Of a stretch of DNA of 64,000 bases, positions 4,696 to 59,973 are shown piece after piece (positions within the stretch are counted from its first letter, which is position 1; each line of letters opens with the position of its first letter). A model generated the notes under the pieces. The model was given only the letters and a program-made list of their open reading frames with translations. It had not been told where the DNA came from and did no database searches. Location of the stretch: assembly GCA_964016885.1 (NCBI GenBank), contig OZ024753.1, positions 35,402,001 to 35,466,000 of the forward strand. The letters run 5' to 3'. A program made the position numbers and the translations under genes. Origin of the DNA: Eledone cirrhosa. Taxonomy: Eukaryota.

Positions 4696-4977
4696 TGTTT
4701 CTTTTATTTGCCACCAGGGCATCAAAAGTGGGACAAGTACAATGGGGGGAGTTTACAAAACAAGGCGTCCTCAATATGGAGGAGGCAATAACAATATATA
4801 AAAATAAAATAAAATATAACAAAAAATAAAATTTATAACAAAGTCCTCAATAGAGAGGAGGCGCCTTGGGGGGTCGCACACACCCCCGAAAAAAAGTGTG
4901 CAACCCTTTTCCTCAGGAGCACAGAGAAGGGGTGCTCCCTTGGTCTTTCATCTTCCTCACCTATAGTCTAATATAGA
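4696..4977 (-). mobile_element. Tx1-clade LINE, 5'-truncated 3'UTR-only copy (subfamily A)
   Basis: Closely matches 10164-10445; flanked both sides by (GATA)n. Confidence 0.9.
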
Positions 4978-4991
4978 TAGATAGATAGATA

Positions 4992-5973
4992 TATTTCTTT
5001 TATTTGCCACTAGGGCATCAAAAGTGGGACAAGTACAAAGGGGGGAGTTTACACAAAAAGGCGTCCTCAATAAGGAGGAGGCAATAACAAAATATAAAAA
5101 TAAAATAAGATATAACAAAAAATAAAATTTTTAACAAAATCCTCAATAGAGAGGAGGCGCCTTGGGGGGTCGCACACACCCCCGAAAAAAGTGTGCAACC
5201 CTTCTCCTCAGGAGCACAGAGAAGGGGTGCTCCCTTGGTCTTTCATCTTCCTCACCTATAGTCTGATGTAGAGTGAAGGCCCATTCACACGGGCCATTCT
5301 CGCCACTTTCACCCATCTTTCATAGAAACGGCTGGGGTGCAGCACCTCTCTCTCCATCCTGATCCTTCTTCCGAAATGATATCGGAAGAAACGGACCAGT
5401 TGTTGGCCAGAGAGAAAGGTGCCTGACCTCAGTCCTTTCAGACGCGTCCACCATACAACCTCTTTCGCCATGGCTATTACGCACAGAAACACCGCCTCTG
5501 CTTCATCTTTGAAGGGGGGAGGCGGCTTGATCATTACGATAGACTCGGTGGTCAACCGGATCGGTTCCACCCTTGACAGCAGTTGTTCGACATAGCCCCA
5601 CAGATCGGCTACGCCCGAGCAGTGTACCAATGCGTGTGCAACGGTTTCCTCGTCGCACACGCATCTGGGACAGATCTTTTTGGCGGGGTCCCTACCCGGG
5701 CGCCCGTGTCTGTAGAGCCTTTCTCGAACGGGTAAAGCCCCTCGGTAGCACTGCCAGGCCAGGGACTTCTGGAAGTTGTCCATAGGTCCCGGCCTGAATG
5801 TCCTACCGAACAGGCTGGCCAGTTCGTCCTCCTCCATGTCTAGGGCTTCTCCGAGGGCGTCGTCGCACCTGCTGCGTACCAGCCCTCTATAGAATGTTGC
5901 GGTGGAGTCTCCACTGATAACCGGATCCGCCTGCCAGAGGGCGGTGAGCGCCTGGGCACACTCGGTGTGCCAG
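4992..5973 (-). mobile_element. Tx1-clade LINE, 5'-truncated ~1 kb copy (subfamily A)
   Basis: Near-identical to 10164-11143; ORF 5256-5837 encodes the CCHC C-terminus (CPRCVCDEETVAHALVHC); (GATA)n on both sides. Confidence 0.95.
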
Positions 5974-6002
5974 GATAGATAGATAGACAGATAGATAGAT
6001 AG

Positions 6003-6430
6003 ATTTCTTTATTAGCCACAAGGGCGCAACAAGAAAGGGGACAATACAAAGACATGCCGGGGATTTTACATACAGTGTGTAAAAATATAAAAACAAACAA
6101 TTTCAACAATCGAAATCCCCAATAGGGGGGAGGCGCCACAAATGGGTTGTTTAATACCCCGTCGATAGAACAACCCTCAACCCGAGGAGCGTGTTGTGCA
6201 AGTGCTCCTTTCTTCCTTTTGCTCTCTTCCTCAACCTACAGGCTTATAAACAGAGAAGGCCCAATCACTCGGGCCATTTTCGCTTCATTCACCCACCTTT
6301 CAGTAAATTTACTGGGGTGCAGTGCCTCTCTCTCCACCCTGATTCTCCTTCTAAAGTGATACTTAAAGAAGGGAATCAATTGTTGTCCGGAGAGAAAGGC
6401 ATCTGTCCTCAGTCCTCTCAACCTCGTCCT
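6003..6430 (-). mobile_element. Tx1-clade LINE, 5'-truncated copy of diverged subfamily B
   Basis: ORF 6236-6421 (RGLRTDAFLSGQQLIPFFKYHFRRRIRVERE...) is homologous to the ORF2 C-terminus; different 3'UTR; (GATA)n on both sides. Confidence 0.9.
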
Positions 6431-10088: not shown

Positions 10089-10163
10089 ATGTAGCTGTGT
10101 GTGAGGGTGTGTGATTGTTTATAGATTAGATAGATAGATAGATAAGATATGTAGAGATAGATA

Positions 10164-13081
10164 TGTTTCTTTTATTTGCCACTAGGGCATCAAAAGTGGG
10201 ACAAGTACAAAGGGGGGAGTTTACACAAAAAGGCGTGCTCAATAAGGAGGAGGCAATAACAAAATATAAAAATAAAATAAGATATAACAAAAAATAAAAT
10301 TTATAACAAAATCCTCAATAGAGAGGAGGCGCCTTGGGGGGTCGCACACACCCCCGAAAAAAGTGTGCAACCCTTCTCCTCAGGAGCACAGAGAAGGGGT
10401 GCTCCCTTGGTCTTTCATCTTCCTCACCTATAGTCTGATGTAGAGTGAAGGCCCATTCACACGGGCCATTCTCGCCACTTTCACCCATCTTTCATAGAAA
10501 CGGCTGGGGTGCAGCACCTCTCTCTCCATCCTGATCCTTCTTCCGAAATGATAACGGAAGAAACGGACCAGTTGTTGGCCAGAGAGAAAGGTGCCTGACC
10601 TCAGTCCTTTCAGACGCGTCCACCATACAACCTCTTTCGCCATGGCTATTACGCACAGAAACACCGCCTCTGCTTCATCTTTGAAGGGGGGAGGCGGCTT
10701 GATCATTACAATAGACTCGGTGGTCAACCGGATCGGTCCCACCCTTGACAGCAGTTGTTCGACATAGCCCCACAGATCGGCTACGCCCGAGCAGTGTACC
10801 AATGCGTGTGCAACGGTTTCCTCGTCGCACACGCATCTGGGACAGATCTTTTTGGCGGGGTCCCTACCCGGGCGCCCGTGTCTGTAGAGCCTTTCTCGAA
10901 CGGGTAAAGCCCCTCGGTAGCACTGCCAGGCCAGGGACTTCTGGAAGTTGTCCATAGGTCCCGGGCTGAATGTCCTACCGAACAGGCTGGCCAGTTCGTC
11001 CTCCTCCATGTCTAGGGCTTCTCCGAGGGCGTCGTCGCACCTGCTGCGTACCAGCCCTCTATAGAATGTTGCGGTGGAGTCTCCACTGATAACCGGATCC
11101 GCCTGCCAGAGGGCGGTGAGCGCCTGGGCACACTCAGTGTGCCAAGCGCCCAGTTTTCTCGGTCTTTGCTTGACCCAGGATTGCAGCTCGGTGAGTGAGA
11201 CGAGTCTGGGAAAGGTTCGTCTCACAAACGAGGCCCACACCGGTTGTCCGGTGAGGAATACGTAGAGGTGCCGTAGCCTTAATGCGTGTTTACGCATCAT
11301 TAGCCACGGCATCCCCAGCCCTCCTTTCGAAGGGTGTTGACAGCAGATGGATCTCCTCACCATAGGAGCCCGCCTCTTCCAAAGGAATTGGAAGAGCGCG
11401 CGCTCCATCTTGGTGAGGGTTTCCCTTGGGCAGGGCACTACGGTCAGGCGGTAGTAGATGACGGACGCTATGTAGGTGTTCGCCACCTCCGCCCGACCTT
11501 TCAGGGATAGTTTGCAACTGGCCCACTTCTGGGTCAGTGCAAACACCCTGTTCGTAACCTCCGCCCAGTTTTTCTCCACCTGGAGGTCCGGTCCGAACCA
11601 GACCCCGAGCAACTTCACCGGGCCCTCCGTCCAGCGTCCGACGACGCCATCGGAGGGCATCGGTCTGCCCCTCCACGTGCCGAGTTGCAAACCGATCGAC
11701 TTGTCCCGGTTCAGCTTAGCCCCTGTGAACTTTTCGTACTCCTCCAGTAAGGTGCCGACCGCCTCGATTTCGGAGGCCGTCGACACCATTACTGTCACGT
11801 CATCGGCGTAGGCCGACACCGCTTTCCGCAATCCCGGTTCCAAAGGAATGCCCTGCAACAACTCCAACTTCCGCAGTAGTGGCTCGAGAGTCAACACATA
11901 CAGAAGGGAGGAGAGAGGGCACCCTTGTCGGATGGACCGCGCGATTTTGAACGGCTCTGAGAGGTAGCCGTTCACCTTGACCCTAGAGCAGATGCGGCTG
12001 CTGTGCATAGCAGTGATCCAGCCCCTGAAAACGGGTCCGAAGCCTGCCGCCGCTAGCACCGCATCCAGGTAACCATGGTCGACCCTATCGAACGCCTTAG
12101 ATTGATCCAAGTTGATCAGAGCCCCACCAAAGCCGGGTTCGTTCCCAACCCTCTCTATGATGTATCGCATGAGGTGGAGGTTGTCATGGATGGACCTGGA
12201 CGGGATAGCGCATGTCTGCGCATCTCCCACCAGGTTGCCCACGACAAGCGCCAACCTCTTTGCTAGCACCTTGGCCAAAATCTGTAACTCTGTATTTAGC
12301 AGAGTTATGGGCCTGAAGTTACTTATTTCGTCCCCCTTGTTCTCGTCCTTCCTCACTAGCGTGACTACGCCCTTGGTCACAGTACAGGGAATTCTCCCGT
12401 TCTGTTGCCAGTTGCAGTAGACCGCTTCGAGGAGATCGGGGAACAAGTCCGGCATAGCTAGATATAATTCGTAAGGAAGACCATCGAGACCCGGGGATTT
12501 GCGTTTGCCGCATTGGCTCAGCACGTCCTCTATCTCAGCGGCCGAAATCGGCTCCTCGCAGGACTTCGCCTCCCTGTCCGAGAGGCGCGGCAGGCCGTCG
12601 AGGTATGGACCGAAGTCCACGTTCCCAACCGGCTCCCCGCCCCTCCCGAACAGTCGGGCAAAGTGCCTTTGAAAGGCCTCACACATCTGCTTAGGCTCAA
12701 GAATCGCCCGTCCATCCAGGTCTCGCAAAGACCGGATGGTGGATTTAGTTCCACTGTTGGCCTCTGTCACGCGGGCCCAGCTAACAGCTTTGGTCCCCTC
12801 GTTCCCTAGAGCACGTATTTTACTTCGGACAACGCAGCCTTCGTGCTTCGCGTCAAAAAACTGGCTCAAAGCCGTTCTCGACGCTAGCACTCTGGCCACG
12901 TCGCCGCTTCTAATTGCCTCTTCTACTCTATCTATTAGCTCCCTTTCCTTCCTATTCCTATCCGCAGCTAGAACCTTACTAAATTCTATCGAGACTACTC
13001 TAATCTCTCTCTTTAGAGATACCCACCACCTGCTGTTGACGATCGCTCCAGTCAACCGTTCCTTAACTAACGTACTAATCC
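10164..13081 (-). mobile_element. Tx1-clade (L1 superfamily) non-LTR retrotransposon, 5'-truncated, 2.9 kb, 18-bp TSD
   Basis: TSD GATATGTAGAGATAGATA at 10146-10163 and 13082-13099; 3' end AATAAAAGAAACA joined directly to TATC repeats; RT ORF inside. Confidence 0.95.
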
Positions 13082-13112
13082 GATATGTAGAGATAGATAG
13101 ATAGACATACAT
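10428..13112 (-). CDS. ORF2 (reverse transcriptase plus zf-RVT/CCHC), N-terminally truncated, APE endonuclease missing
   Basis: Motifs KSPGLDGLPYELY, FRPITLLN, DQSKAFDRVDH, QGCPLS, YADD, CPRC..H....C. The first ~10 codons (MYVYLSISTY) come from the flanking microsatellite/TSD, so the ATG is not genuine. Confidence 0.92.
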   Translation of the reverse strand: MYVYLSISTYRISTLVKERLTGAIVNSRWWVSLKREIRVVSIEFSKVLAADRNRKERELIDRVEEAIRSGDVARVLASRTALSQFFDAKHEGCVVRSKIRALGNEGTKAVSWARVTEANSGTKSTIRSLRDLDGRAILEPKQMCEAFQRHFARLFGRGGEPVGNVDFGPYLDGLPRLSDREAKSCEEPISAAEIEDVLSQCGKRKSPGLDGLPYELYLAMPDLFPDLLEAVYCNWQQNGRIPCTVTKGVVTLVRKDENKGDEISNFRPITLLNTELQILAKVLAKRLALVVGNLVGDAQTCAIPSRSIHDNLHLMRYIIERVGNEPGFGGALINLDQSKAFDRVDHGYLDAVLAAAGFGPVFRGWITAMHSSRICSRVKVNGYLSEPFKIARSIRQGCPLSSLLYVLTLEPLLRKLELLQGIPLEPGLRKAVSAYADDVTVMVSTASEIEAVGTLLEEYEKFTGAKLNRDKSIGLQLGTWRGRPMPSDGVVGRWTEGPVKLLGVWFGPDLQVEKNWAEVTNRVFALTQKWASCKLSLKGRAEVANTYIASVIYYRLTVVPCPRETLTKMERALFQFLWKRRAPMVRRSICCQHPSKGGLGMPWLMMRKHALRLRHLYVFLTGQPVWASFVRRTFPRLVSLTELQSWVKQRPRKLGAWHTECAQALTALWQADPVISGDSTATFYRGLVRSRCDDALGEALDMEEDELASLFGRTFSPGPMDNFQKSLAWQCYRGALPVRERLYRHGRPGRDPAKKICPRCVCDEETVAHALVHCSGVADLWGYVEQLLSRVGPIRLTTESIVMIKPPPPFKDEAEAVFLCVIAMAKEVVWWTRLKGLRSGTFLSGQQLVRFFRYHFGRRIRMEREVLHPSRFYERWVKVARMARVNGPSLYIRL

Positions 13113-13140: not shown

Positions 13141-14234
13141 ATAAAATTACTCCTTCATAAGTGATTTTCATTGGTATTTCATCGCTTTAAACATCATATA
13201 CCTCTAATTGGTGCGAGCAATAGCTAAATAAAGCTAATGGGACAAATAATTGTTTCTACTTTAGGCACAAGGCCAGCAATTACCCAGTGCATTACTGGTA
13301 CTTTATTATGGCGGGGGAGTTGGCGTCCTGAGAGTGCCAGGGTGTGGGAACCGTAGTCGAGGGTGAAGCGGCCACCCGTCCCACCACGAACTACGATGGT
13401 AGGAATAAAATTCAAATCCGGTGGGGTCGGCAATCTTACTGCGGTGCGGACCCGAGCCCTTCGGACGCCATGCTTTCCAGCATAATTACGTCCCTTTATG
13501 ATCTGAGTTCAAATCCCGCCGAGGTTAACTTTATTTTATCGACCCCGTAAGGATGAAAGGCAAAGTTAATGGGACAAATAATATAGCGTGAAGCGAGCGA
13601 GACATGTAAAGCGATGAAATACCAATGATGGTTGGAAAATCACTGACGAAGGACTAATTTTATTCATAGGTAACCCATGTGCAACCACGCAGCACTCCAT
13701 TCTTCTCATATTTATATTTTTTCCTCAGCTGCGATTGTCTGTTTCTTTCTTACTGCTCCCCCCTTCTCTCTGTATCTCTCACCTTCTTTTACCCCCTCTG
13801 CCAGTCACACTCTCTCTCTCCTCTCGAATGGCCTCTTCCTCACACTTCCACTCACTCACCCTCTGCTTCTCCCCTTCTCTCACTTCCTCCCTTTTGACCT
13901 GTGTGAAATCCTTTTCTCGCTCACATCTCACCCATGTCGGATGGTCTATATATCTTTCTCGTCCATGAATTCACCAAGCTTAAGCTTAATAGATATCATG
14001 TACCTGTTTCTTCCTATCTTTCCGTGGCAATACCATCTTTGTTTGTTTACATGTCTCGCTCGCTTCACGCTATATTATTTGTCCCATTAGCTTTATTTAG
14101 CTATTGCTCGCACCGACGAGAGGTATATGATTTTTAAAGCGATGAAATACCAATGAAGGTTGGAAAATCACTGATGAAGGACTAATTTTATTCATATGTA
14201 ACCCATGTGCAACTACAGAGCACTCCATTCTTCT

Positions 14235-18885: not shown

Positions 18886-19914
18886 TCATTTTCTTCCGAG
18901 ACTTGTCACACAAATTCATTTGCCTCACTAAATTTCTATCGTGTCATTATTTTTTGCTATTATCATCACGCCTACTCTCGCCAGGCTAACCCCCCTCTCC
19001 ACATCCCTACATCGTTCTCTTTCTTCCTTCCAGCCCCGCCATCTTTCTTTCCGTCACTTTAATACACTTCATATTGTATTTCACAATCTCTTTTTTTTAT
19101 TTTTATTTTATTCTACTTTCGTCCTCCTCTTTTTTTATACTCATATATATTCATATTATTATCATTCAGCAAAGAATTACAGCCCTTTATGATCTGAGTT
19201 CAAATCCCGCCGAGGTTAACTTTGCCTTTCATCCTTATGGGGTCGATAAAATAAAGCACCAGTAATAACCCTGGGGTAATTGCTGGCCTTGTGCAAAAAG
19301 TAGAAACAATTATTATCATTCATATTATTTCATAAAAAGCAGACGACAAGAAAAGAAGTGAAAGTAAAAAAAAAAAAGCAAAAAAAGCACAAACACAAAA
19401 AAATAAAATAAAGGAAAACGAAAAATAAACGTTTTAATCGTGACGTCACGTTCTATGAAAGAAGTTTCTACTGGGAGTGACTTAATATTGACTCTCTTGT
19501 ATAGGTCACACCTGGTTCCATACACACAGCAAACGATCTTTCTATCTCTCTTTCTTCTAATGTAATCATAAACAATTCTTTTCTTCTACAAACTATCTGG
19601 AGGCAGGTACAAGTCCGTAGCCGTTACCACACACACAGTGAGCAGTAATAATATAAATATGTGAGGAAACTAATCTTGTTAAATGTTCAGTTGTGTAAGA
19701 AAGATAGGAGTGGACTATCTTCATTCATACCACACATTGAATGAAATGAGATCTGCTTAAAATAGCTTGCAAGCACACAAAACACATGTGCCAGATGTAG
19801 AAACAGTTGTTATTGGGGTCGATAAATTAAAGTACCAGTAACGCATTGGGGTCGACTTAATCGACTTCCCCCTCCCCCCAAATTACTGGCCTTGTGCTTC
19901 AAATCAGAAACCAT

Positions 19915-20919: not shown

Positions 20920-21100
20920 AGCCGTGGATTGGTAGAGGCTGGGACGCTATGCTTTGGAGCATAGAGTTACGGCCCTTTATGGTCTGAGTTCAAATCCTGC
21001 AGAGGTCAACTTTGCCTTTCATCCTTACGGGGTCGATAAAATAAAGTACCAGTAATGCACTGAGATAATTGCTGGCATTGTGCCAAAAGTAGAAACAATT
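20920..21100 (+). mobile_element. SINE S1
   Basis: Matches the S1 consensus including the B box. Confidence 0.85.
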
Positions 21101-22479
21101 ATATATAAATTAACGATTTTATTTATTCTATATTATTTACAATTTGTGTATAGGCAGGTCTCTCTGAAAATAGGGGTGGGGGCAATGAGGGTATTACGTG
21201 GCCGTGAAGGGGCCGGGCGGTGGTCCCAAAAGTTTGAGAACCTCTGCTGTACATCAACGGCTGCTCTTAGTGACCTGTGAAAGTGGTTATTTATCTCAGT
21301 ACTATATTAAGAAATCAATAAAAGTTCCCTCTCCTGCAAACATCCTGACCAGACTTCCGGTTGTCTTACCGCCCACATTTCTATTGGTTGATTGAGCAAA
21401 GTCATTAGAGCATGGGAGTAAATGCTTTACGGTTTTTTGGTTTCGGTTTTCTGCACTCCGAATTTAATGTCACCAAGGTCAACTTTGCGTTTTCGTCTTT
21501 TCTAAGTTGATAAAATAAAGTAGCAGTATCGGAAGTTGAATGGAAGTTGAATTGGTTCCGGTTCACTGCGTTCTGAGTGCAAATCTCGCTGAGGTCAACT
21601 TTGCTTTCAACTTCACGAGATCAATAACTAAAATATCAGTGTGACAATGACAGAGTTGATATGTATGTATGAGTGGTCCCCCCGTAACTCCTGACTGAGT
21701 CGCAGGGGCGCCGTATTGACGACATACAGTGTTTCTTGGACATTTCAAGCCTGGCGGAGCCCATCCCTCTCCAGGCCTGAGTACAGCAGATTTCTTCCAG
21801 AGTAAGATAGAAAGTGAGAGAGAGAGGAAATGTGAAAGAGATATAGAGGAAGAATCGACACCAGTAGTAGACTGGTACTTTTATTTATCAACCTCGGCGG
21901 GATTTGAACTCAGAGTGCAGTGAGCCGGAACAAATACCACAAGGCATTCTATCCGACGTTCTAACGACTCTGCCATTTCACCGCCAGAGGTGATGTAGCG
22001 TTGGATAAAATACCTTGCGGTATTTATTCTGACTCTCTGCATTCTGAGTGCAAATCCGGCTGAGGTCAACTTCGCTGTTGTCTTCACGGGATCGATAACC
22101 AGTCAAAGTACTGGAGTTAATTCTTCGCTCTCTCTTTCTCTCAGAATTGGCAAAGCTGTGCTGTTTAAGGGTCACAGGAGACAGCTTACATCCGGGACGT
22201 AGAATAGGGAGGAAGGGTCAGCCAGTACATCGTTCCAAAGACCGGAGAACTCAGGAGGGGGATCTGCCTGTACTTATATGACGACTCCTACTCCCTAAAG
22301 AACCTCCACACCGACACAGGGCTCCCTTCCCGCTCCCCTGCCCCCCGTAATCAGTCATGTTCCGCCTTGCGAAATGTCAGTGACTGTGATGACAGAAAAG
22401 ATATCAGATACGAAGATAATTAAAAAGTGGAGTGTGGCTGGTGGTGGAACCACACTCACTACACGAGTTGGCATTTGTA

Positions 22480-27177: not shown

Positions 27178-27692
27178 CCTTAAAAAAAACAAAGCGACGG
27201 CAACGAGACAACGATAGAGACCCCCCGTGATGTCATTAAATCTGTTGAGAAATAGTAGCTAAATCTCCTTCAAGTACTGGAATAAGACAAATTGTATGAT
27301 GTGGTTCCGTGTTTTCTGAATATAGGGAGAAAGATGGGCTGTTGTTGTTTTGGGGTTCGATGCCGTATAGTTCAAAGGTTAATGAGTTCGCTTCACAATC
27401 ATTAGGTCCCGAGTTCGAACTTTGGAAAATGTCATTTACAATAATTTCGAGTCAACCATTGCTTTGTGAGTGAAATTGTAGATGTGCAGACAGAAACTGT
27501 TTGGAAGCCCATCGTATTACAGGGCTTTACTTTTAATTCAAAAGGCCAGACTTGTCATCCCGCTGAATCTTCTTGGAAATTACCTTATGGGTACACGTGT
27601 CTGTGGATAGCTCAGTCACGTACTCATTAATGTCATCTAAGAAATATATCTATCTACTTCTCTGTATGTCTATACAGAGAGTTAGATAGATA

Positions 27693-27720
27693 TATTTCTT
27701 TATTTGCCACAAGGGCGCTT
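27693..27720 (-). mobile_element. Tx1-clade 3'-terminal stub (~28 bp)
   Basis: TAGATAGATA|TATTTCTTTATTTGCCACAAGGGCG; the right flank starts CAGAGA, matching the start of the 18 bp left of the junction (27675). Confidence 0.7.
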
Positions 27721-33033: not shown

Positions 33034-34054
33034 ATTGTCCCTCAAATTTTGAGGCATTGAGCCTATTTAAAAATTCCAACAAAATAAACAATATTTTGTG
33101 AGAAAGATTTTTTTAATAACTGTAGTTTTAAATAATTTAATTCTCATTTTTAATTAACGCTGAATACCTCTTTTATCCTCTCTCATCTCATTTTCACCCC
33201 CCTTCGTACTTTTCGCATTTTACTTTCATCATCTAACTTCTAAAGCACGTATAGAATTACACAGTTTCTATTCAGCTCAGCATCTTAATGAAATAATTAA
33301 TCACGTGACGAACTAATCCACCAATCAGATTTCGCGTATCACAATACTCCATCATTTCCGCTTCAGATTTCTTGTATACGGACTTTCTCATATTCGTCCA
33401 CATTCTTGGGCGAATGTTCACTCGGCAGCAGATGGGCTCAGCAATACACGTTTATCATCATCATCATCATCATCATCATCATCGTCATTATTATTATTAT
33501 TATTTTATTTGTCTATTTATTTGTTATATATATATATATATATATTTACCTGTTAACTTCTACAGTGACGTCAGCAACGACACTGAGTCACACAGGTTTG
33601 ATGAGAAATGTGGGAATGGTAAGCTTGTTTATAAGTACGGTATATATAGTATGTATCTAGAACTTTCTGAAGATGTGTCAGGCAGTTCTTGTCAGTTGGC
33701 GATAAACAACAGATGAGATTTGAAGAAAGAACCCCCCCCCCCCCGTAAAAAAAAAGAACCCAACAAAGTTTTATATAGGAAGCCAAAAAGAATGCTATAT
33801 ACCGCTAGCAGGGAATGCTGCTGCTTTGAAGCCAATTTCGACTCTTCTTTCTTCGTTGCCACATTTTCCATGCGCCTCCACATCTTGCCCACCCACCCCA
33901 CACACCCTCCACAGCATCTCCCATTTACTTGACTCCTCTTCCTGCCACTCTATCTTCTACAATTGCTTCTATTTCTATCATTAACACTACAAATGTTTGT
34001 CGGTTGCGGTGATATAGAGGAAGAGACACGCTCGCACACGCATATATACATACA

Positions 34055-34240
34055 ATTGTTTCTACTTTAGGCACAAGGCCAGCAATTACCTAGTGCATTA
34101 CTGGTACTTTATTTTATCGACCCCGTAAGGATGAAAGGCAAAGTCAACCTCGGCGGGATTTGAACTCAGATCGTAAAGGGACGTAACTATGCTGGAAAGC
34201 ATGGCGTCCGACCCTCTACCGATACTGCCAATCCACCGCC
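34055..34240 (-). mobile_element. Full-length SINE S1
   Basis: Reverse complement of the S1 consensus with A and B boxes. Confidence 0.9.
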
Positions 34241-37893: not shown

Positions 37894-38474
37894 TGTTTCT
37901 TTATTAGCCACAGGGGCACGAAAGAAGGGAACAAGTACAAAGGGGGAAGTTTACATACAATAAAAACGTGTAAAATGTTATCACAAATGCAATTTATAAA
38001 ATTAGTCGATTTTCCCCAATAGGGGGAGACAGTTCATATGGGTAACACATACCCCCGAAAAAATGTGCAACCCTCATCTCCAGGAGTACGAAGAGTTTGT
38101 ACTCCTTTCCTCTCCTCCTCCTTAACCTACAGGCTGATATAGAGAGAAGGCCCATTCACTCGAGCCATTCTCGCCACTTTCACCCACCTTTCATAAAACT
38201 TGCTGGGGTACAGCACCTCTCTCTCCACCTGACTCTTCTTCTAAAGTGGTATTTGAAAAAAAGAATCAGTTGTTGGCCGGAGAGAAAGGGTGTCTGACCT
38301 CAGCCCTTTCAACCTTGTCCACCATACAACCTCTTTCGCCATAGCTATCACACAAAGGAAAACCGCCTCTCCTTCGTTTTTGAAGGAGGGTGGCGGTTTG
38401 ATCATGACAATGGACTCGGTGGTCAACCGGATTGGTCCCACCCGCGACAATAGTCGTTCTACATAGCTCCACAG
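37894..38474 (-). mobile_element. Tx1-clade LINE, 5'-truncated copy of subfamily C
   Basis: ORF 38241-38450 (SRVGPIRLTTESIVMIKPPP...) is homologous to ORF2, with frameshifts; distinct 3'UTR; (GATA)n on both sides. Confidence 0.9.
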
Positions 38475-38519: not shown

Positions 38520-38635
38520 CGATAGATAGATAGATCGATAGCTGGTTAGAAGATAGATAGATATATAGAAAGATAGATAGCTTGGTGGATAGAAAGCCGG
38601 GTGGATAGATGGATAGTTAGATAGAAAGATAGATA

Positions 38636-38676
38636 TATTTCTTTATTTGCCACAGGGGCACAAAAGATGGGGACAA
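38636..38676 (-). mobile_element. Tx1-clade 3' stub (older)
   Basis: GATAGATA|TATTTCTTTATTTGCCACAGGGGCACAAAAGATGGGGACAA. Confidence 0.8.
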
Positions 38677-38684
38677 GATAGATA

Positions 38685-38812
38685 AGTTTCTTTTTATTTG
38701 CCACCAGGGCATCAAAGAGTGGGACAAGTACAATGGGGGGAGTTTACATAAAAAGGCGTCCTCACTAAGGAGGAGGCAATAACAAAATATAAAAATATAA
38801 AATATAACAAAA
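38685..38812 (-). mobile_element. Tx1-clade subfamily A 3' stub (younger), 16-bp TSD
   Basis: TSD GGGGACAAGATAGATA at 38669-38684 and 38813-38828. Confidence 0.85.
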
Positions 38813-39027
38813 GGGGACAAGATAGATAGCCGGGTGGATAGATGGATAGGGGTGTTAGATCAAGGGAGGGTACGTAGAAAGAACAGTTGTTATAGAAGAG
38901 GTCGTCAGCATTGGGAAAAATAATAATGAACAAAAAAAATAATAATTCAATAAATAAATTAAAATAACAACAATAATAACAACAATAATAATAATAAATC
39001 ATAAAAAAGAGAGGCAGTCGACATAGG

Positions 39028-39057
39028 TTAGGGTTAGGGTTAGGGTTAGGGTTAGGG
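39028..39057 (+). repeat. Interstitial telomere-type (TTAGGG)5
   Basis: Five perfect TTAGGG units. Confidence 0.85.
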
Positions 39058-39114
39058 TATTTTGGCTGAGTGCCAGAGTTGATCCCTGATAGGTAGAACT
39101 AGCAGTAGACATGT

Positions 39115-41559: not shown

Positions 41560-41740
41560 AGCGGTGGATTGGCAGTATCGGTGGAGGGTCGGATGCCATG
41601 CTTTCCAGCATAGTTACGTTCCTTTACGATCTGAGTTCAAATCCCGCCGAGGTTGACTTTGCCTTTCATTCTTACGGGATCGATAAAATAAAGTACCAGT
41701 AATGCACTGGCCTTGTGCTTAAAGTAGAAACAATTACTAT
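41560..41740 (+). mobile_element. SINE S1, preceded by an S1 3' stub at ~41495
   Basis: A and B boxes and S1 body; ATTACTATATATATAGTA repeated at both ends. Confidence 0.9.
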
Positions 41741-42654
41741 ATATATAGTATAAAAAAACGAAAAGTCCGTGATGCATCTGGACTCAGTTTATTGCGTGTT
41801 ACAATTGTTTCGCCGGCAGGTAGCTCGAGACATGATCACTGTATGGATCTGGCTGATTCTACGGCTGCAGGTTCTATAATTCAAATTAATAGATATATCT
41901 AGAGAAAGGACCATATATATTTTGAGAACAAACACTCTTTTGTATATTATATATACAAATACATATATATCAAGGAAAAATATGTACTTTAGATGGAAAA
42001 AATTATAATTCCTAGACACGTTGGAATGGATAGAATGTTCTAAGGTATTTGATCTGACTCTCTGCACTCTGAGCTCAAATCTCGCCGAGGTCAAGTCCTT
42101 TCTTTTCGCATTTTCAAGGTCGATAAAAAAAAAAGCACCAGCCAAGTACTGGGGTCGCTTCTATCTTTATATCTATCACACTTTCCCTCTTACGTTGAAA
42201 GAGAAGTCGGCTTTGTTCAGACCTGGTGAGAGATGGGTTGTGCCAGGTTACATTTTCTCAATACACGCTATATATCACTATGACCCCATCAGAAGTTACA
42301 GGTCCATACGTACATACATAATTTTAAACATACATACGTACGTACATGCATACATCCATACACACAAACACACCTACGTACATACATATATCCACACATA
42401 CATTTATACACACACACACATAGATTCATATAACCACACATGCATATCTAATTACACACACATACATATAATCAAACACACATATATACACACACATACA
42501 TAACACATCCATCAATTCATCTATCCGCCATCTATCCAACCATAAATACATATTATGTTATATAAAATAATTGGTTGTTGTTCCATATATTTTATGGTGC
42601 GTAAAGTAATTTCAACTATTTGCTTTCTCTGTCTTGTTCGAACGTCTGTTTGTT

Positions 42655-45600
42655 ATCTAACCTTATACCAGACGGCATCCAGGCTATATATTCTATAACA
42701 TACGGTATTGAACCAATCTACCTTATACCAGACGACAACCAGGCTATATATTCTATAACATAGGGTATTGAACCAATCTACCTTATACCAGACAACATCC
42801 AGGCTATATATTCTATAACATACGGTATTGAACCAATCTACCTTATACCACACGATAACCAGGCTATATATTCTATAACATACGGTATTGAACCAATCTA
42901 CCTTATACCAGACGACATCCAGGCTATATATTCTATAACATACGGTATTGAACCAATCTACCTTATACCACACGATAACCAGGCTATATATTCTATAACA
43001 TACGGTATTGAACCAATCTACCTTATAGCAGACGACATCCAGGCTATATATTCTATAACATACGGTATTGAACCAATCTACCTTATACCACACGATAACC
43101 AGGCTATATATTCTATAACATACGGTATTGAACCAATCTACCTTATACCAGACGACATCCAGGCTATATATTCTATAACATACGGTATTGAACCAATCTA
43201 CCTTATACTAGACGACATCCAGGCTATATATTCTATAACATACGGTATTGAACCAATCTACCTTATACCAGACGACAATCAGGCTATATATTCTATAACA
43301 TACGGTATTGAACCAATCTACCTTATACCAGACAACATCCAGGCTATATATTCTATAACATACGGTATTGAACCAATCTACCTTATACTAGACAACATCC
43401 AGGCTATATATTCTATAACATACGGTATTGAACCAATCTACCTTATACCAGACGACAACCAGGCTATATATTCTATAACATACGGTATTGAACCAATCTA
43501 CCTTATACTAGACGACAACCAGGCTATATATTCTATAAATACGGTATTGAACCAATCTACCTTATACCAGACGACATCCAGGCTATATATTCTATAACAT
43601 ACGGTATTGAACCAATCTACCTTATACCAGACGACAATCAGGCTATATATTCTATAACATACGGTATTGAACCAATCTACCTTATACCAGACGACAACCA
43701 GGCTATATATTCTATAACATACGGTATTGAACCAATCTACCTTATATCAGACGACATCCAGGCTATATATTCTATAACATACGGTATTGAACCGATCTAC
43801 CTTATACCAGACGACAACCAGGCTATATATTCTATAACATACGGTATTGAACCAATCTACCTTATACTAGACGACAACCAGGCTATATATTCTATAACAT
43901 ACGGTATTGAACCAATCTACCTTATACCAGACGACATCCAGGCTATATATTCTATAACATACGGTATTGAACCAATCTACCTTATATCAGACGACATCCA
44001 GGCTATATATTCTATAACATACGGTATTGAACCGATCTACCTTATACCAGACGACAACCAGGCTATATATTCTATAACATACGGTATTGAACCAATCTAC
44101 CTTATACTAGACGACAACCAGGCTATATATTCTATAACATACGGTATTGAACCAATGTACCTTATACCAGACGACATCCAGGCTATATATTCTATAACAT
44201 ACGGTATTGAACCGATCTACCTTATACCAGACGACAACCAGGCTATATATTCTATAACATACGGTATTGAACCAATCTACCTTATACCAGACGACAACCA
44301 GGCTATATATTCTATAACATACGGTATTGAACCAATCTACCTTATACCAGACGACATCCAGGCTATATATTCTATAACATACGGTATTGAACCAATCTAC
44401 CTTATACCAGACGACAATCAGGATATATATTCTATAACATACGGTATTGAACCAATCTACCTTATACCAGACGACAACCAGGCTATATATTCTATAACAT
44501 ACGGTATTGAACCAATCTACCTTATACCAGACGACATCCAGGCTATACATTCTATAACATACGGTATTGAACCAATCTACCTTATACCAGACGACAACCA
44601 GGCTATATATTCTATAACATACGGTATTGAACCAATCTACCTTATACCAGACGACAACCAGGCTATATATTCTATAACATACGGTATTGAACCAATCTAC
44701 CTTATACCAGACGACATCCAGGCTATATATTCTATAACATACGGTATTGAACCAATCTACCTTATACCAGACGACAACCAGGCTATATATTCTATAACAT
44801 ACGGTATTGAACCAATCTACCTTATACTAGACGACATCCAGGCTATATATTCTATAACATACGGTATTGAACCAACCTACCTTATACCAGACGACAACCA
44901 GGCTATATATTCTATAACATACGGTATTGAACCAATCTACCTTATACCAGACGACATCCAGGCTATATATTCTATAACATACGGTATTGAACCAATCTAC
45001 CTTATACCAGACGACATCCAGGCTATATATTCTATAACATACGGTATTGAACCAATCTACCTTATACCAGACGACAACCAGGCTATATATTCTATAACAT
45101 ACGGTATTGAACCAATCTACCTTATACCAGACGACATCCAGGCTATATATTCTATAACATACGGTATTGAACCAATCTACCTTATACCAGACGACAACCA
45201 GGCTATATATTCTATAACATACGGTATTGAACCAATCTACCTTATACTAGACGACATCCAGGCTATATATTCTATAACATACGGTATTGAACCAATCTAC
45301 CTTATACCAGACGACAACCAGGCTATATATTCTATAACATACGGTATTGAACCAATCTACCTTATACTAGACGACATCCAGGCTATATATTCTATAACAT
45401 ACGGTATTGAACCAATCTACCTTATACTAGACGACATCCAGGCTATATATTCTATAACATACGGTATTGAACCAATCTACCTTATACCAGACGACAACCA
45501 GGCTATATATTCTATAACATACGGTATTGAACCAATCTACCTTATACCAGACGACATCCAGGCTATATATTCTATAACATACGGTATTGAACCAATCTAC

Positions 45601-47467
45601 CTTATACCAGACGACAACCAGGCTATATATTCTATAACATACGGTATTGAACCAATCTACCTTATACTAGACGACATCCAGGCTATATATTCTATAACAT
45701 ACGGTATTGAACCAATCTACCTTATACCAGACGACATCCAGGCTATATATTCTATAACATACGGTATTGAACCAATCTACCTTATACCAGACGACAACCA
45801 GGCTATATATTCTATAACATACGGTATTGAACCAATCTACCTTATACTAGACGACATCCAGGCTATATATTCTATAACATACGGTATTGAACCAATCTAC
45901 CTTATACCAGACGACAACCAGGCTATATATTCTATAACATACGGTATTGAACCAATCTACCTTATACCAGACGACATCCAGGCTATATATTCTATAACAT
46001 ACGGTATTGAACCAATCTACCTTATACCAGACGACATCCAGGCTATATATTCTATAACATACGGTATTATACCAATCTACCTTATACCAGACGACATCCA
46101 GGCTATATATTCTATCACATACGGTATTGAACCAATCTACCTTATACCAGACGACATCCAGGCTATATATTCTATAACATACGGTATTGAACCAATCTAC
46201 CTTATACCAGACGACATCCAGGCTATATATTCTATAACATACGGTATTGAACCAATCTACCTTATACTAGCCGACATCCAGGCTATATATTCTATAACAT
46301 ACGGTATTGAACCAATCTACCTTATACTAGACGACATCCAGGCTATATATTCTATAACATACGGTATTGAACCAATCTACCTTATACCAGACGACAACCA
46401 GGCTATATATTCTATAACATACGGTATTGAACCAATCTACCTTATACCAGACGACATCCAGGCTATATATTCTATAACATACGGTATTGAACCAATCTAC
46501 CTTATACCAGACGACAACCAGGCTATATATTCTATAACATACGGTATTGAACCAATCTACCTTATACTAGACGACATCCAGGCTATATATTCTATAACAT
46601 ACGGTATTGAACCAATCTACCTTATACCAGACGACATCCAGGCTATATATTCTATAACATACGGTATTGAACCAATCTACCTTATACCAGACGACAACCA
46701 GGCTATATATTCTATACCATACGGTATTGAACCAATCTACCTTATACTAGACGACATCCAGGCTATATATTCTATAACATACGGTATTGAACCAATCTAC
46801 CTTATACCAGACGACAACCAGGCTATATATTCTATAACATACGGTATTGAACCAATCTACCTTATACCAGACGACATCCAGGCTATATATTCTATAACAT
46901 ACGGTATTGAACCAATCTACCTTATACCAGACGACATCCAGGCTATATATTCTATAACATACGGTATTATACCAATCTACCTTATACCAGACGACATCCA
47001 GGCTATATATTCTATCACATACGGTATTGAACCAATCTACCTTATACCAGACGACATCCAGGCTATATATTCTATAACATACGGTATTGAACCAATCTAC
47101 CTTATACCAGACGACATCCAGGCTATATATTCTATAACATGCGGTATTGAACCAATCTACCTTATACTAGACGACATCCAGGCTATATATTCTATAACAT
47201 ACGGTATTGAACCAATCTACCTTATACTAGACGACATCCAGGCTATATATTCTATAACATACGGTATTGAACCAACCTACCTTATACCAGACGACAACCA
47301 GGCTATATATTCTATAACATACGGTATTGAACCAATCTACCTTATACCAGACGACAACCAGGCTATATATTCTATAACATACGGTATTGAACCAACCTAC
47401 CTTATACCAGACGACAACCAGGCTATATATTCTATAACATACGGTATTGAACCAATCTACCTTATAC
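42655..47467. repeat. 60-bp tandem satellite, ~80 copies
   Basis: Unit CCTTATACCAGACGACA(T/A)CCAGGCTATATATTCTATAACATACGGTATTGAACCAATCTA; 1-bp deletion near 43539. Confidence 0.98.
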
Positions 47468-47479
47468 GAGACCTCAAGA

Positions 47480-47815
47480 GAGAAGACCCTCTTCAGTCAC
47501 GAATGACCATAGGTTTTGCACCTAGAAAGTTTCCCTCCGAGGTACAAATCCGGGCAAGGTTGTTTGTGGAAGACCAGCAGTCGCCAACGCATACCAGTTT
47601 TCCTCTCTCCACGCCACCGATGTTGTCCAAGAGAAAGGCTATGGCCGATACAGCTTGGCACCAGTGACGTCGCAACACATTTCTACAGCTGAGTAAACTG
47701 GAGCAACGTGAAATAAAGTGCCTTGTTCAAGGACACCTGTTTTTTTCAGTTGAGAATCGAACTTATGACCTTTTGAATCGTGAGATCAGAAACCCAACCA
47801 CTAAGCCGCGTGTCT
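47480..47815 (-). mobile_element. tRNA-derived SINE with CORE-like domain
   Basis: Reverse complement of GTGTCCTTGAACAAGGCACTTTATTTCACGTTGCTCCAG and a B box (AGTTCGATTC). Confidence 0.7.
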
Positions 47816-53702: not shown

Positions 53703-53878
53703 TTGGCAGTATAGGTAGAGGGTCGGACGCCATACTTTCCAGCATAGTTACGTCCCTTTACGGTCTGAGTTCAAATCCCGCCGAGGTTGACTTTGCCTTT
53801 CATCCTTACGGGGTCGATAAAATAAAGTACCAGTAATACACTGGTTAAATTGCTGGCCTTGTGCCTAAAGTAGAAACA
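53703..53878 (+). mobile_element. SINE S1 with 19-bp TSD
   Basis: ATTAATTACTAAACATGTA at 53684-53702 and 53879-53897. Confidence 0.92.
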
Positions 53879-54294
53879 ATTAATTACTAAACATGTACCT
53901 CCACTAACCTAATATCAAATAAAAACTACAGCTACTTCCACAGTAGTAGTAGTAGTAGTAGTGGTAGTAGTGGTAGTAGTAGTGGTAGTAGTAGTAGTGG
54001 TAGTAGTAGTAGTAGTAGTAGTAGTACCTCGTAAAGCTGTTGGTGCCAGACAACTGTATGTGTAGAAAACAGTGTGCAGACTTTCAAACAAACACAAACA
54101 CTTCACTTTTAACTTAAACAATTGCCTCATTTGTCTAAGAGTTGGTGGATTGGTAAATAGTTGTGTATGATACTCGTGGGTACATGTAAACATACACACA
54201 CAGCACACTATAAATGAATAATGTCTATATACATAATCATGGCTATACAAGGATGTACACACACATAAACACTGAAACAGTTGTAAATATAAAC

Positions 54295-54533: not shown

Positions 54534-54656
54534 CAGTACCACATATTCAACTCCAGTTTATAACATCACACCCTTTATGTACATTTCAAAGGCAACAAAA
54601 AAGTCATTATGTAGTTATCCGATGCGTTGTTGTCAAACAAGTGTTTAAATGTAAAT

Positions 54657-54844
54657 AATTGTTTCTACTTTTGGCACAAGGCCAGCAATTACCCAGTGTA
54701 TTACTGGTACTTTATTTTATCGACCCCGTAAGGATGAAAGGCAAAGTTAACCTCGGTGGGATTTGAACTCAGAATGGCAAGGGCCGTAATTCTATGCGTC
54801 AAAGCATGGCGTCCGATCCTCTACTGATACTGCCAATCCACCGC

Positions 54845-59169: not shown

Positions 59170-59355
59170 GGGTTTGCAGTGTAGGTAGAGGGTCAGGCAC
59201 CATGCTTTCTAGCATAGAGTTACGTCCCTTTACGGTTTGAGTTCAAATCCTACCGAGGTTAACTTTGCCTTTCATCCTTACGGGGTCGATAAAATAAAGT
59301 ACCAGTAATGCACTGAGATAATTGCTGGCCTTGTGCCAAAAGTAGAAACAATTAT
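59170..59355 (+). mobile_element. SINE S1
   Basis: S1 consensus match. Confidence 0.88.
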
Positions 59356-59973
59356 TTATTTATATAAATGTTAGTTTTTCCCAGTCACTCGATATGTATT
59401 TAATACACAAGGTATATGGTATTAATTTATCTGCTAGCTACAAGTAGACAGAAACCAGATATAGGGGTGCATGTGGTCTGATGAAGTACGTCCTCTTAAG
59501 ACCGGTGTTGCTGGTTCGTTTTAATTTAAAATCTTATTTAATCTGGTAATTAAATAAAAATATATTTCGTTTTAAATACAAGAAGGAAAATATTTGAAAA
59601 TAATATATTTAGAAATACTGTATATTATTATTTTATGAATAAATTACAGGTTTTATTGTAAAAAATGCAAGTGTCTTTTGTGGTTATGAAAACGGAATAG
59701 AAAAGGATATACTGTGATGTTTTGGGGGTTTTTTTTTGCTAGATTTATTGTATTTATAAAGTTGTTCAGAAATTAGTGCAGGTTTTATAGTTTTATTTGT
59801 TTCAATATTTTATTAGAATAAAAATATACACCAGGTGTGTAAAATTATATAACAGTTTATTTTATGTACTTTCTTTGTACATAAACGTACATGAAACGTA
59901 TGGAACGGTTGATATTGAATTAAACAACAAACATTTTCAAGTGAAACTTTGTTGTGTAAGTCTTAATATATAT

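Follow-up and report, generated by a model that had tools for sequence, protein, structure and literature searches.

Several families of the Tx1 clade of LINEs insert into microsatellites, namely Kibi into (TC)n, Koshi into (TTC)n and crocodilian families into (TTCC)n/(TTTC)n (PMC4494074). The same source lists 5S rRNA among the targets of Tx1 families, and describes a 16-nt duplication for Tx1-Mar and SINEU-3, whose tandem copies sandwich the duplication as a result of sequential insertion (PMC4494074). Both 16-bp duplications and microsatellite-targeting Tx1 elements are thus already published (PMC4494074). Moreover, a telomere-specific Tx1 is cited (PMC10088271). In Octopus vulgaris, 13 recently active L1-Tx1 families with 421 insertions are reported in an article whose main text holds neither the word "GATA" nor the word "target" (PMC13282606). 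Biochemical work on other clades bears on how such elements enter DNA. R1Bm cuts the two strands 14 bp apart (PMC1919474), priming by L1 is governed by the pairing of primer and template across the last 10 nt (PMC3649969), and annealing of read-through RNA lifts insertion by R2Ol, for which the read-through sequence is 28S, from 12% to 96-98% (PMC6530143).

In this study, we describe a LINE family at GATA repeats in a 64-kb stretch of octopod DNA, here called the window, which was analysed at its full length. In the literature, mostly open-access, we found no GATA-targeting LINE; Repbase and Dfam, outside this scope, may list one. (GATA)n is apparently an unreported target of L1/Tx1-type LINEs.

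Results

The longest copy of the family, copy D, and its flanks contain the following features (window positions):
10146..10163, plus strand: target-site duplication at the 3' end of copy D, an exact 18-mer ending in GATAGATA, the putative primer end
10164..13081, minus strand: copy D, a 5'-truncated L1/Tx1-type LINE of 2,918 bp without poly(A)
10164..10427, minus strand: 3' UTR of copy D, 264 nt, with predicted stem-loops and an inverted repeat at 10361-10408
10171..10176, minus strand: AATAAA of copy D, 7 nt from the 3' junction
10428..13081, minus strand: ORF2 remnant of copy D, stop-free, ~884 codons
10770-10940, minus strand: zf-RVT domain in ORF2 (E=2.9e-5, 25.1 bits)
11601-12332, minus strand: RVT_1 domain in ORF2 (E=3.4e-26)
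13082..13099, plus strand: target-site duplication on the side of the truncated 5' end, after which come 1.5 further GATA units and then (CATA)n/(TA)n

Copy D is a truncated, likely young LINE. Its non-LTR reverse transcriptase (RT) domain is recognised as RVT_1 (E=3.4e-26). The zf-RVT score of 25.1 bits falls just below the cut-off of 27.5, and the zinc-finger motif aligns in relatives. According to the alignment with homologs, the element is truncated immediately past the end of the endonuclease domain. The APE endonuclease of ORF2 is lost by 5' truncation from all eight family copies in the window, and no ORF1 was found in the 64 kb. The family shows the hallmarks of LINEs, with a common 3' end, variable 5' truncation, a target-site duplication and neither LTR nor TIR (8 copies, 26-2,918 bp).

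The nearest named protein comes from Argonauta hians (62-65% identity), and no full-length protein of the element's own clade was present, both among the best 120 of 416 matches. Argonauta as the source of the nearest named protein makes an octopod host likely. Among the matches listed, relatives at ~41-43% identity are full-length APE-RT-zf proteins with an N-terminal APE domain (PF03372), and the endonuclease is also missing from the four closest proteins (P0001-P0004). In a quick tree of 29 rows with midpoint root, which held no named Tx1 or L1 rows, the window protein clusters with the Argonauta protein and three others (SH-aLRT 100). Aligned with human L1 ORF2p, residues 112-595 reach 155 bits, compared with 216-252 bits for four LINEs found in genome contigs (L039, L041-L043); two of these four are inserted in 5S rRNA genes. 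The higher score against these four LINEs, two of them in 5S rRNA, favours Tx1 over L1, a comparison of scores being no clade test. Judged from its sequence, the window family is probably of Tx1 type. The best PDB match of the RT of copy D is L1 ORF2p, followed by R2; in the ESM Atlas only generic RT clusters were matched. ORF1 of the Tx1 clade carries a zinc knuckle, and one relative (L022) bears zf-CCHC.

Eight copies at four independent loci were found when both strands of the window were searched with a GATA-free 3'-end motif, allowing 2 substitutions, together with blastn and tblastn. Their pairwise identity ranges from 73% to 99.3%. The seven copies besides D, with the duplication of copy H, are:
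4696..4977, minus strand: copy A, a 3' fragment, 96% identical to D, the first of three copies in a head-to-tail array
4992..5972, minus strand: copy B, 981 bp, 99.3% identical to D
6002..6429, minus strand: copy C, of a divergent subfamily, 77% identical to D
27693..27718, minus strand: copy E, a 26-bp stub
37894..38474, minus strand: copy F, 581 bp, 81% identical to D
38636..38677, minus strand: copy G, a 42-bp stub
38669..38684, plus strand: left duplication of copy H
38685..38812, minus strand: copy H, 128 bp, 95% identical to D, placed at the site regenerated by G
38813..38828, plus strand: right duplication of copy H

Five of the eight (at 4696, 4992, 6002, 37894 and 38636) were absent from the original prediction, which had been made for this DNA from its letters. 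Copies A, B and C form one head-to-tail array. Nine nucleotides of the left duplication of H are the truncated end of G, so G was inserted before H. That all eight copies share one orientation was not used as evidence, since four independent loci give p=0.125 (hand calculation). The predicted hairpins of 10164-10427, kept across copies A, C, D and F at 73-96% identity, are candidate recognition elements for the RT; the consensus fold of these four sequences holds two-sided changes in 7 of 39 pairs, a weak signal.

GATA at the junctions

On the plus strand all eight 3' ends read AGATAGATA, exactly two variable bases, TTTC and then the complement of AATAAA, the signal lying 6-8 nt from the junction in every copy. 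The 9-mer AGATAGATA precedes only 57 of the 128,000 strand positions of the window (54 plus, 3 minus), and the three minus-strand sites carry no insertion. Each of the ten plus-strand GATA clusters is a junction of this family. At the 5' junction GATA is present in seven of the eight copies. Thus, in this one window, the same repeat lies at the flanks of 8/8 copies and 4/4 loci, above the level of >20% used as a criterion in PMC4494074. The (TC)n or (TTC)n target of Kibi and Koshi is not shared, the target of the window family being (GATA)n; none of the 3' ends lies in an AG tract, though the window holds 1,118 bp of such tracts. A tRNA or other RNA gene as target was rejected, as the window gave no Rfam match; no tRNA was present in the 26 scanned of the 44 related loci described below.

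None of the eight 3' junctions carries poly(A), and no T-run exceeds 5. The 2-nt linker takes four forms (TG, TA, GA, AG), and that of B differs from that of D despite 99.3% identity. Read in sense, each donor copy runs on into TATCTATC. Copies D, G and H, the three of eight with readable non-repeat flanks, show no net gain of tail units over the duplication. A long GATA tract lies on the 3' side of copy A.

Target-site duplications

On the two strands of the 64-kb window the 18-mer GATATGTAGAGATAGATA has just two exact occurrences, 10146-10163 and 13082-13099. A first-order Markov model puts its probability per position at ~2e-10, and that of its non-repeat first 10 nt at ~4e-6. Among 41 non-pure-repeat 18-mers of the window ending in GATAGATA, two recur within 6 kb: GATATGTAGAGATAGATA itself and one within a degenerate GA/GATA tract. 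The exact 18-mer at both ends of the 2.9-kb copy, as originally described, is therefore borne out, and the duplication is an ordinary footprint of target-primed reverse transcription (TPRT). The two exact 18-base copies are likely the DNA in which D landed. That the flanking GATA pre-existed as genomic DNA is likewise upheld, by the 5'-junction GATA in seven of eight copies and by the exact duplications of non-repeat sequence that flank D and H.

The 16-bp duplication claimed for the copy at 38685 was recovered exactly at 38669-38684 and 38813-38828 and ends in GATAGATA (chance ~6e-10, first-order Markov). Next to these two exact duplications of 18 and 16 bp, the remaining copies are heterogeneous. 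Counting exact matches, G has 7-10 bp, unless its duplication is an eroded one of at least 28 bp. Copy B has at most 12, with an extra G besides, and copy C 10-13; if one mismatch is admitted, B reaches 16, C 18 and F, which lacks an exact duplication, 14, 18 or 22. In A the duplication, of up to 14-19 nt, lies in pure repeat. In A, B, C and F the length is unreadable because the flanks are near-pure repeat. For E, no exact duplication that ends at the junction reaches 4 nt. The 18-bp duplication proposed for this stub at 27693 matches in 13 of 18 positions, the same score as pure (GA)n, and does not survive. With regard to a length of 16-18 bp, two of the eight copies are informative, four are compatible but unreadable, one disagrees and one shows no duplication. 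The tabulation originally proposed as a check, carried out here on the eight window copies, thus returns GATA at all 3' junctions and a length that varies. The duplication length varies in the family, and the sequence cannot fix the exact cut site.

The suggestion that about two GATA units are enough is supported by the copies at 38636 and 38685, which have two 5' of the junction; the entry site of H offers only these two before the junction and non-repeat sequence after it. The site of copy D is no test of this minimum, since ~3.5 GATA units surround its junction and others lie upstream.

Two structures lie close to the short copies. The 3' junction of stub E falls within a 29-bp inverted repeat (93%, 4-nt loop) at 27639-27700. 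The left flank of E belongs to this repeat together with the element's own 3' end; a fold-back rearrangement during or after insertion is the likely origin. A 29-bp direct repeat of 97% (38588-38616 and 38821-38849) spans copies G and H and is either a degenerate minisatellite unit or the eroded long duplication of G.

Other repeats of the window comprise a tandem array with a unit of 86-119 bp and internal (CA)n at 1240-2238, another at ~42500-47500 with ~80 copies of a 60-bp unit that are 96-98% alike, and 5.5 copies of a TTAGGG-type telomeric repeat at 39026-39058, 200 bp from copy H. A SINE-like interspersed repeat of ~150-190 bp is present in both orientations (19167-19320, 20928-21110, 34044-34223, 41577-41746, 53711-53882, 54648-54824, 59184-59359 and others), with a disrupted copy at 13242-13569 just beyond copy D. 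None of its copies in the window coincides with a GATA cluster.

Relatives in other assemblies

A search of genome contigs yielded 44 related loci with 28-43% identity, evidently eukaryotic DNA inside bacterial assemblies. Forty of them (L001-L038, L040, L044) lie on 16 contigs of assembly CAXXMW01 in head-to-tail arrays, whose units carry full-length ORF1 and ORF2 and are 41-43% identical to the window element. These arrays extend over tens of kilobases with a period of ~6.4-6.9 kb, a contamination that is evidently eukaryotic. In CAXXMW01, each of the 49 3' ends detected terminates 0-3 nt after AATAAA and gives way to a spacer specific to the array, and none of them has poly(A). The spacer was measured at three types of junction, namely the unique left edge in one array and the positions ahead of 5'-truncated units, of which there are two kinds; its length is 16 nt in each, so that it behaves as a duplication. 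Nine spacer types without visible consensus were seen, eight of them from elements with 90-96% identical endonucleases. Among near-identical elements of this assembly the 16-nt spacers are unrelated and the 5' ends differ. As these relatives sit at non-GATA sites, the stagger of ~16 nt, the absence of poly(A) and the self-stacking are traits of the lineage and not specific to GATA.

In two further loci, again within bacterial assemblies, poly(A)-tailed LINEs are inserted in 5S rRNA genes (L041 4422-4534, L042 2726-2844); we take them to resemble the 5S-targeting Tx1 family Mutsu. One truncated CAXXMW01 unit is repeated twice with an identical junction, and unequal exchange may have enlarged the arrays as well. 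Array growth through double insertion and unequal exchange has been published (10.1101/158386).

Discussion

GATA is for certain the target of the window family, and it is probably also the pairing tail of its RNA. The original prediction had set target against tail. Its first half stands, and the opposition between the two does not, since pairing of RNA-borne UAUC with the primer is compatible with the duplication. Transcripts are in general cleaved 10-30 nt past AAUAAA. With AATAAA 6-8 nt upstream of the junction, the cut would fall 2-24 nt into the flank, and the RNA is predicted to carry UAUC units able to pair with a GATA primer. Given such pairing, the product would be the same wherever in the last 8 nt the nick fell, which leaves the first nick uncertain over that length. 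At the truncated end, homolog P0001 reads D-R-I-S and copy D reads Y-R-I-S across the 5' junction, so that 0-3 nt may be microhomology. The claim that the duplication fixes the nick geometry is therefore too strong, with an uncertainty of up to 8 nt for the first nick and of 0-3 nt for the second. For copy D the stagger is bounded at roughly 7-18 nt, or 15-18 nt if no pairing takes place. A primer ending in GATA keeps its strand and polarity under TPRT and loses its exact end; a second nick 16-18 nt away holds for D and H, two of eight copies, and is contradicted by G.

The most likely reading, which we hold with good though not full confidence, is TPRT by a LINE with a nick on the GATA strand, UAUC-GATA pairing and a second nick usually ~16-18 nt off. 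The APE endonuclease, missing in copy D, would nick the GATA strand. The 3' end of the RNA, with flank-derived UAUC, would pair with the freed GATA primer, and copying of the RNA by the RT would begin at a fixed point, 6-8 nt beyond AAUAAA. With such a fixed start neither poly(A) nor a net tail is laid down. The second nick would then make the duplication, the outcome seen in D and H. The duplication would regenerate the target, onto which more copies could stack head to tail, as is the case for G and then H. The 5' truncation in this scheme is seen directly, and the nicks and the RNA pairing are what we infer. Several observations speak against the scheme. The endonuclease is missing in all copies, so that its sequence-specific nicking is putative; G has 7-10 bp, B at most 12 exact and E no duplication; four linker forms exceed the variation expected from strict templating; three minus-strand AGATAGATA sites are empty, and the copies occupy only 4 independent loci.

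The zero net tail in D, G and H and the duplications of D and H would also fit an endonuclease that alone chooses the site, its first nick falling exactly after GATAGATA and its second 16-18 nt off, with an RNA that has no complementary tail. Endonucleases set the target in Tx1L, R1Bm, TRAS1 and SART1 (PMC1919474), and the variable 2-nt linker could be an untemplated addition. Free untemplated addition, however, would not keep the linker at 2 nt in 8/8 copies, and AATAAA is present yet poly(A) occurs in no copy. G with its 7-10 bp breaks the spacing, and the junction of C continues in target phase (GA), permitting a later nick. We regard this explanation as unlikely. Conversely, a relaxed endonuclease might nick widely and RNA-primer pairing select GATA, the founder having landed in a TATC tract. 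The relatives with 90-96% identical endonucleases, using eight unrelated 16-nt spacers each in its own arrays, agree with this, and a relaxed-endonuclease L1 still inserts at T-tracts (PMC3649969). Such arrays can, however, come from one double insertion and unequal exchange (10.1101/158386), 39 of 245 endonuclease columns vary among the relatives and could alter specificity, and GATA use persists across subfamilies 73-81% apart. Selection by pairing alone therefore seems to us a rather doubtful account.

That every plus-strand GATA cluster of the window touches a copy, and that the long tract of copy A lies on its 3' side, would be expected if the element seeded (GATA)n tracts itself and the matches were tail plus chance. 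A 3' tail cannot supply the 5'-junction GATA of seven of eight truncated copies, and it leaves the exact non-repeat duplications in D and H and the lack of net tail in D, G and H unaccounted for. From the junctions of the eight copies this origin of GATA was rejected, and we consider it highly improbable.

TPRT with both a GATA-strand nick and pairing hence remains the preferred reading. A more speculative extension, to which we give little credence at present, is that the target is remembered by the RNA and not by the nuclease. Read-through past AAUAAA into the duplicated flank would guide re-priming at the same sequence; a landing in (TATC)n would have made a GATA-targeting family, and sister elements with 90-96% identical endonucleases would return to sites of their own, eight unrelated 16-mers, and pile up there as arrays. 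If true, the specificity for a target would descend from the first landing site and could be re-programmed by a swap of the 3' flank. This would explain the frequent target switching of Tx1-type elements and would offer a flank-programmable integrase. On the findings themselves, apart from this extension, GATA tracts of the host genome are insertion hot spots and unreliable markers.

Comparison with known systems

Compared with the mammalian L1, the window family shares RT homology (155 bits) and, as proposed here, the use of the same repeat as target and RNA tail with pairing at priming; L1 leaves a poly(A) tail, whereas the window family leaves none. As in R1Bm, staggered nicks would yield the duplication (14 bp in R1Bm), and as in R2Ol, target read-through on the RNA would aid priming. 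R1Bm and R2Ol, both specific for rDNA, belong to other clades with other targets, and their nicks were mapped biochemically, whereas those of the window family are deduced. With Tx1-Mar and SINEU-3 the family has in common the 16-nt duplication and tandem stacking, although their target is Mariner and not a microsatellite. Kibi, Koshi and the crocodilian Tx1 families share with it an RT-zinc-finger ORF2, APE in full-length relatives and a one-strand microsatellite preference; the window family differs from them in its target, (GATA/TATC)n, and in its octopod host. Like the L1-Tx1 class described for Octopus vulgaris (PMC13282606), it consists of L1/Tx1-type elements in an octopod. (GATA)n thereby joins the microsatellites used by L1/Tx1-type LINEs, in an octopod, with elements of this type reported as active in Octopus vulgaris.
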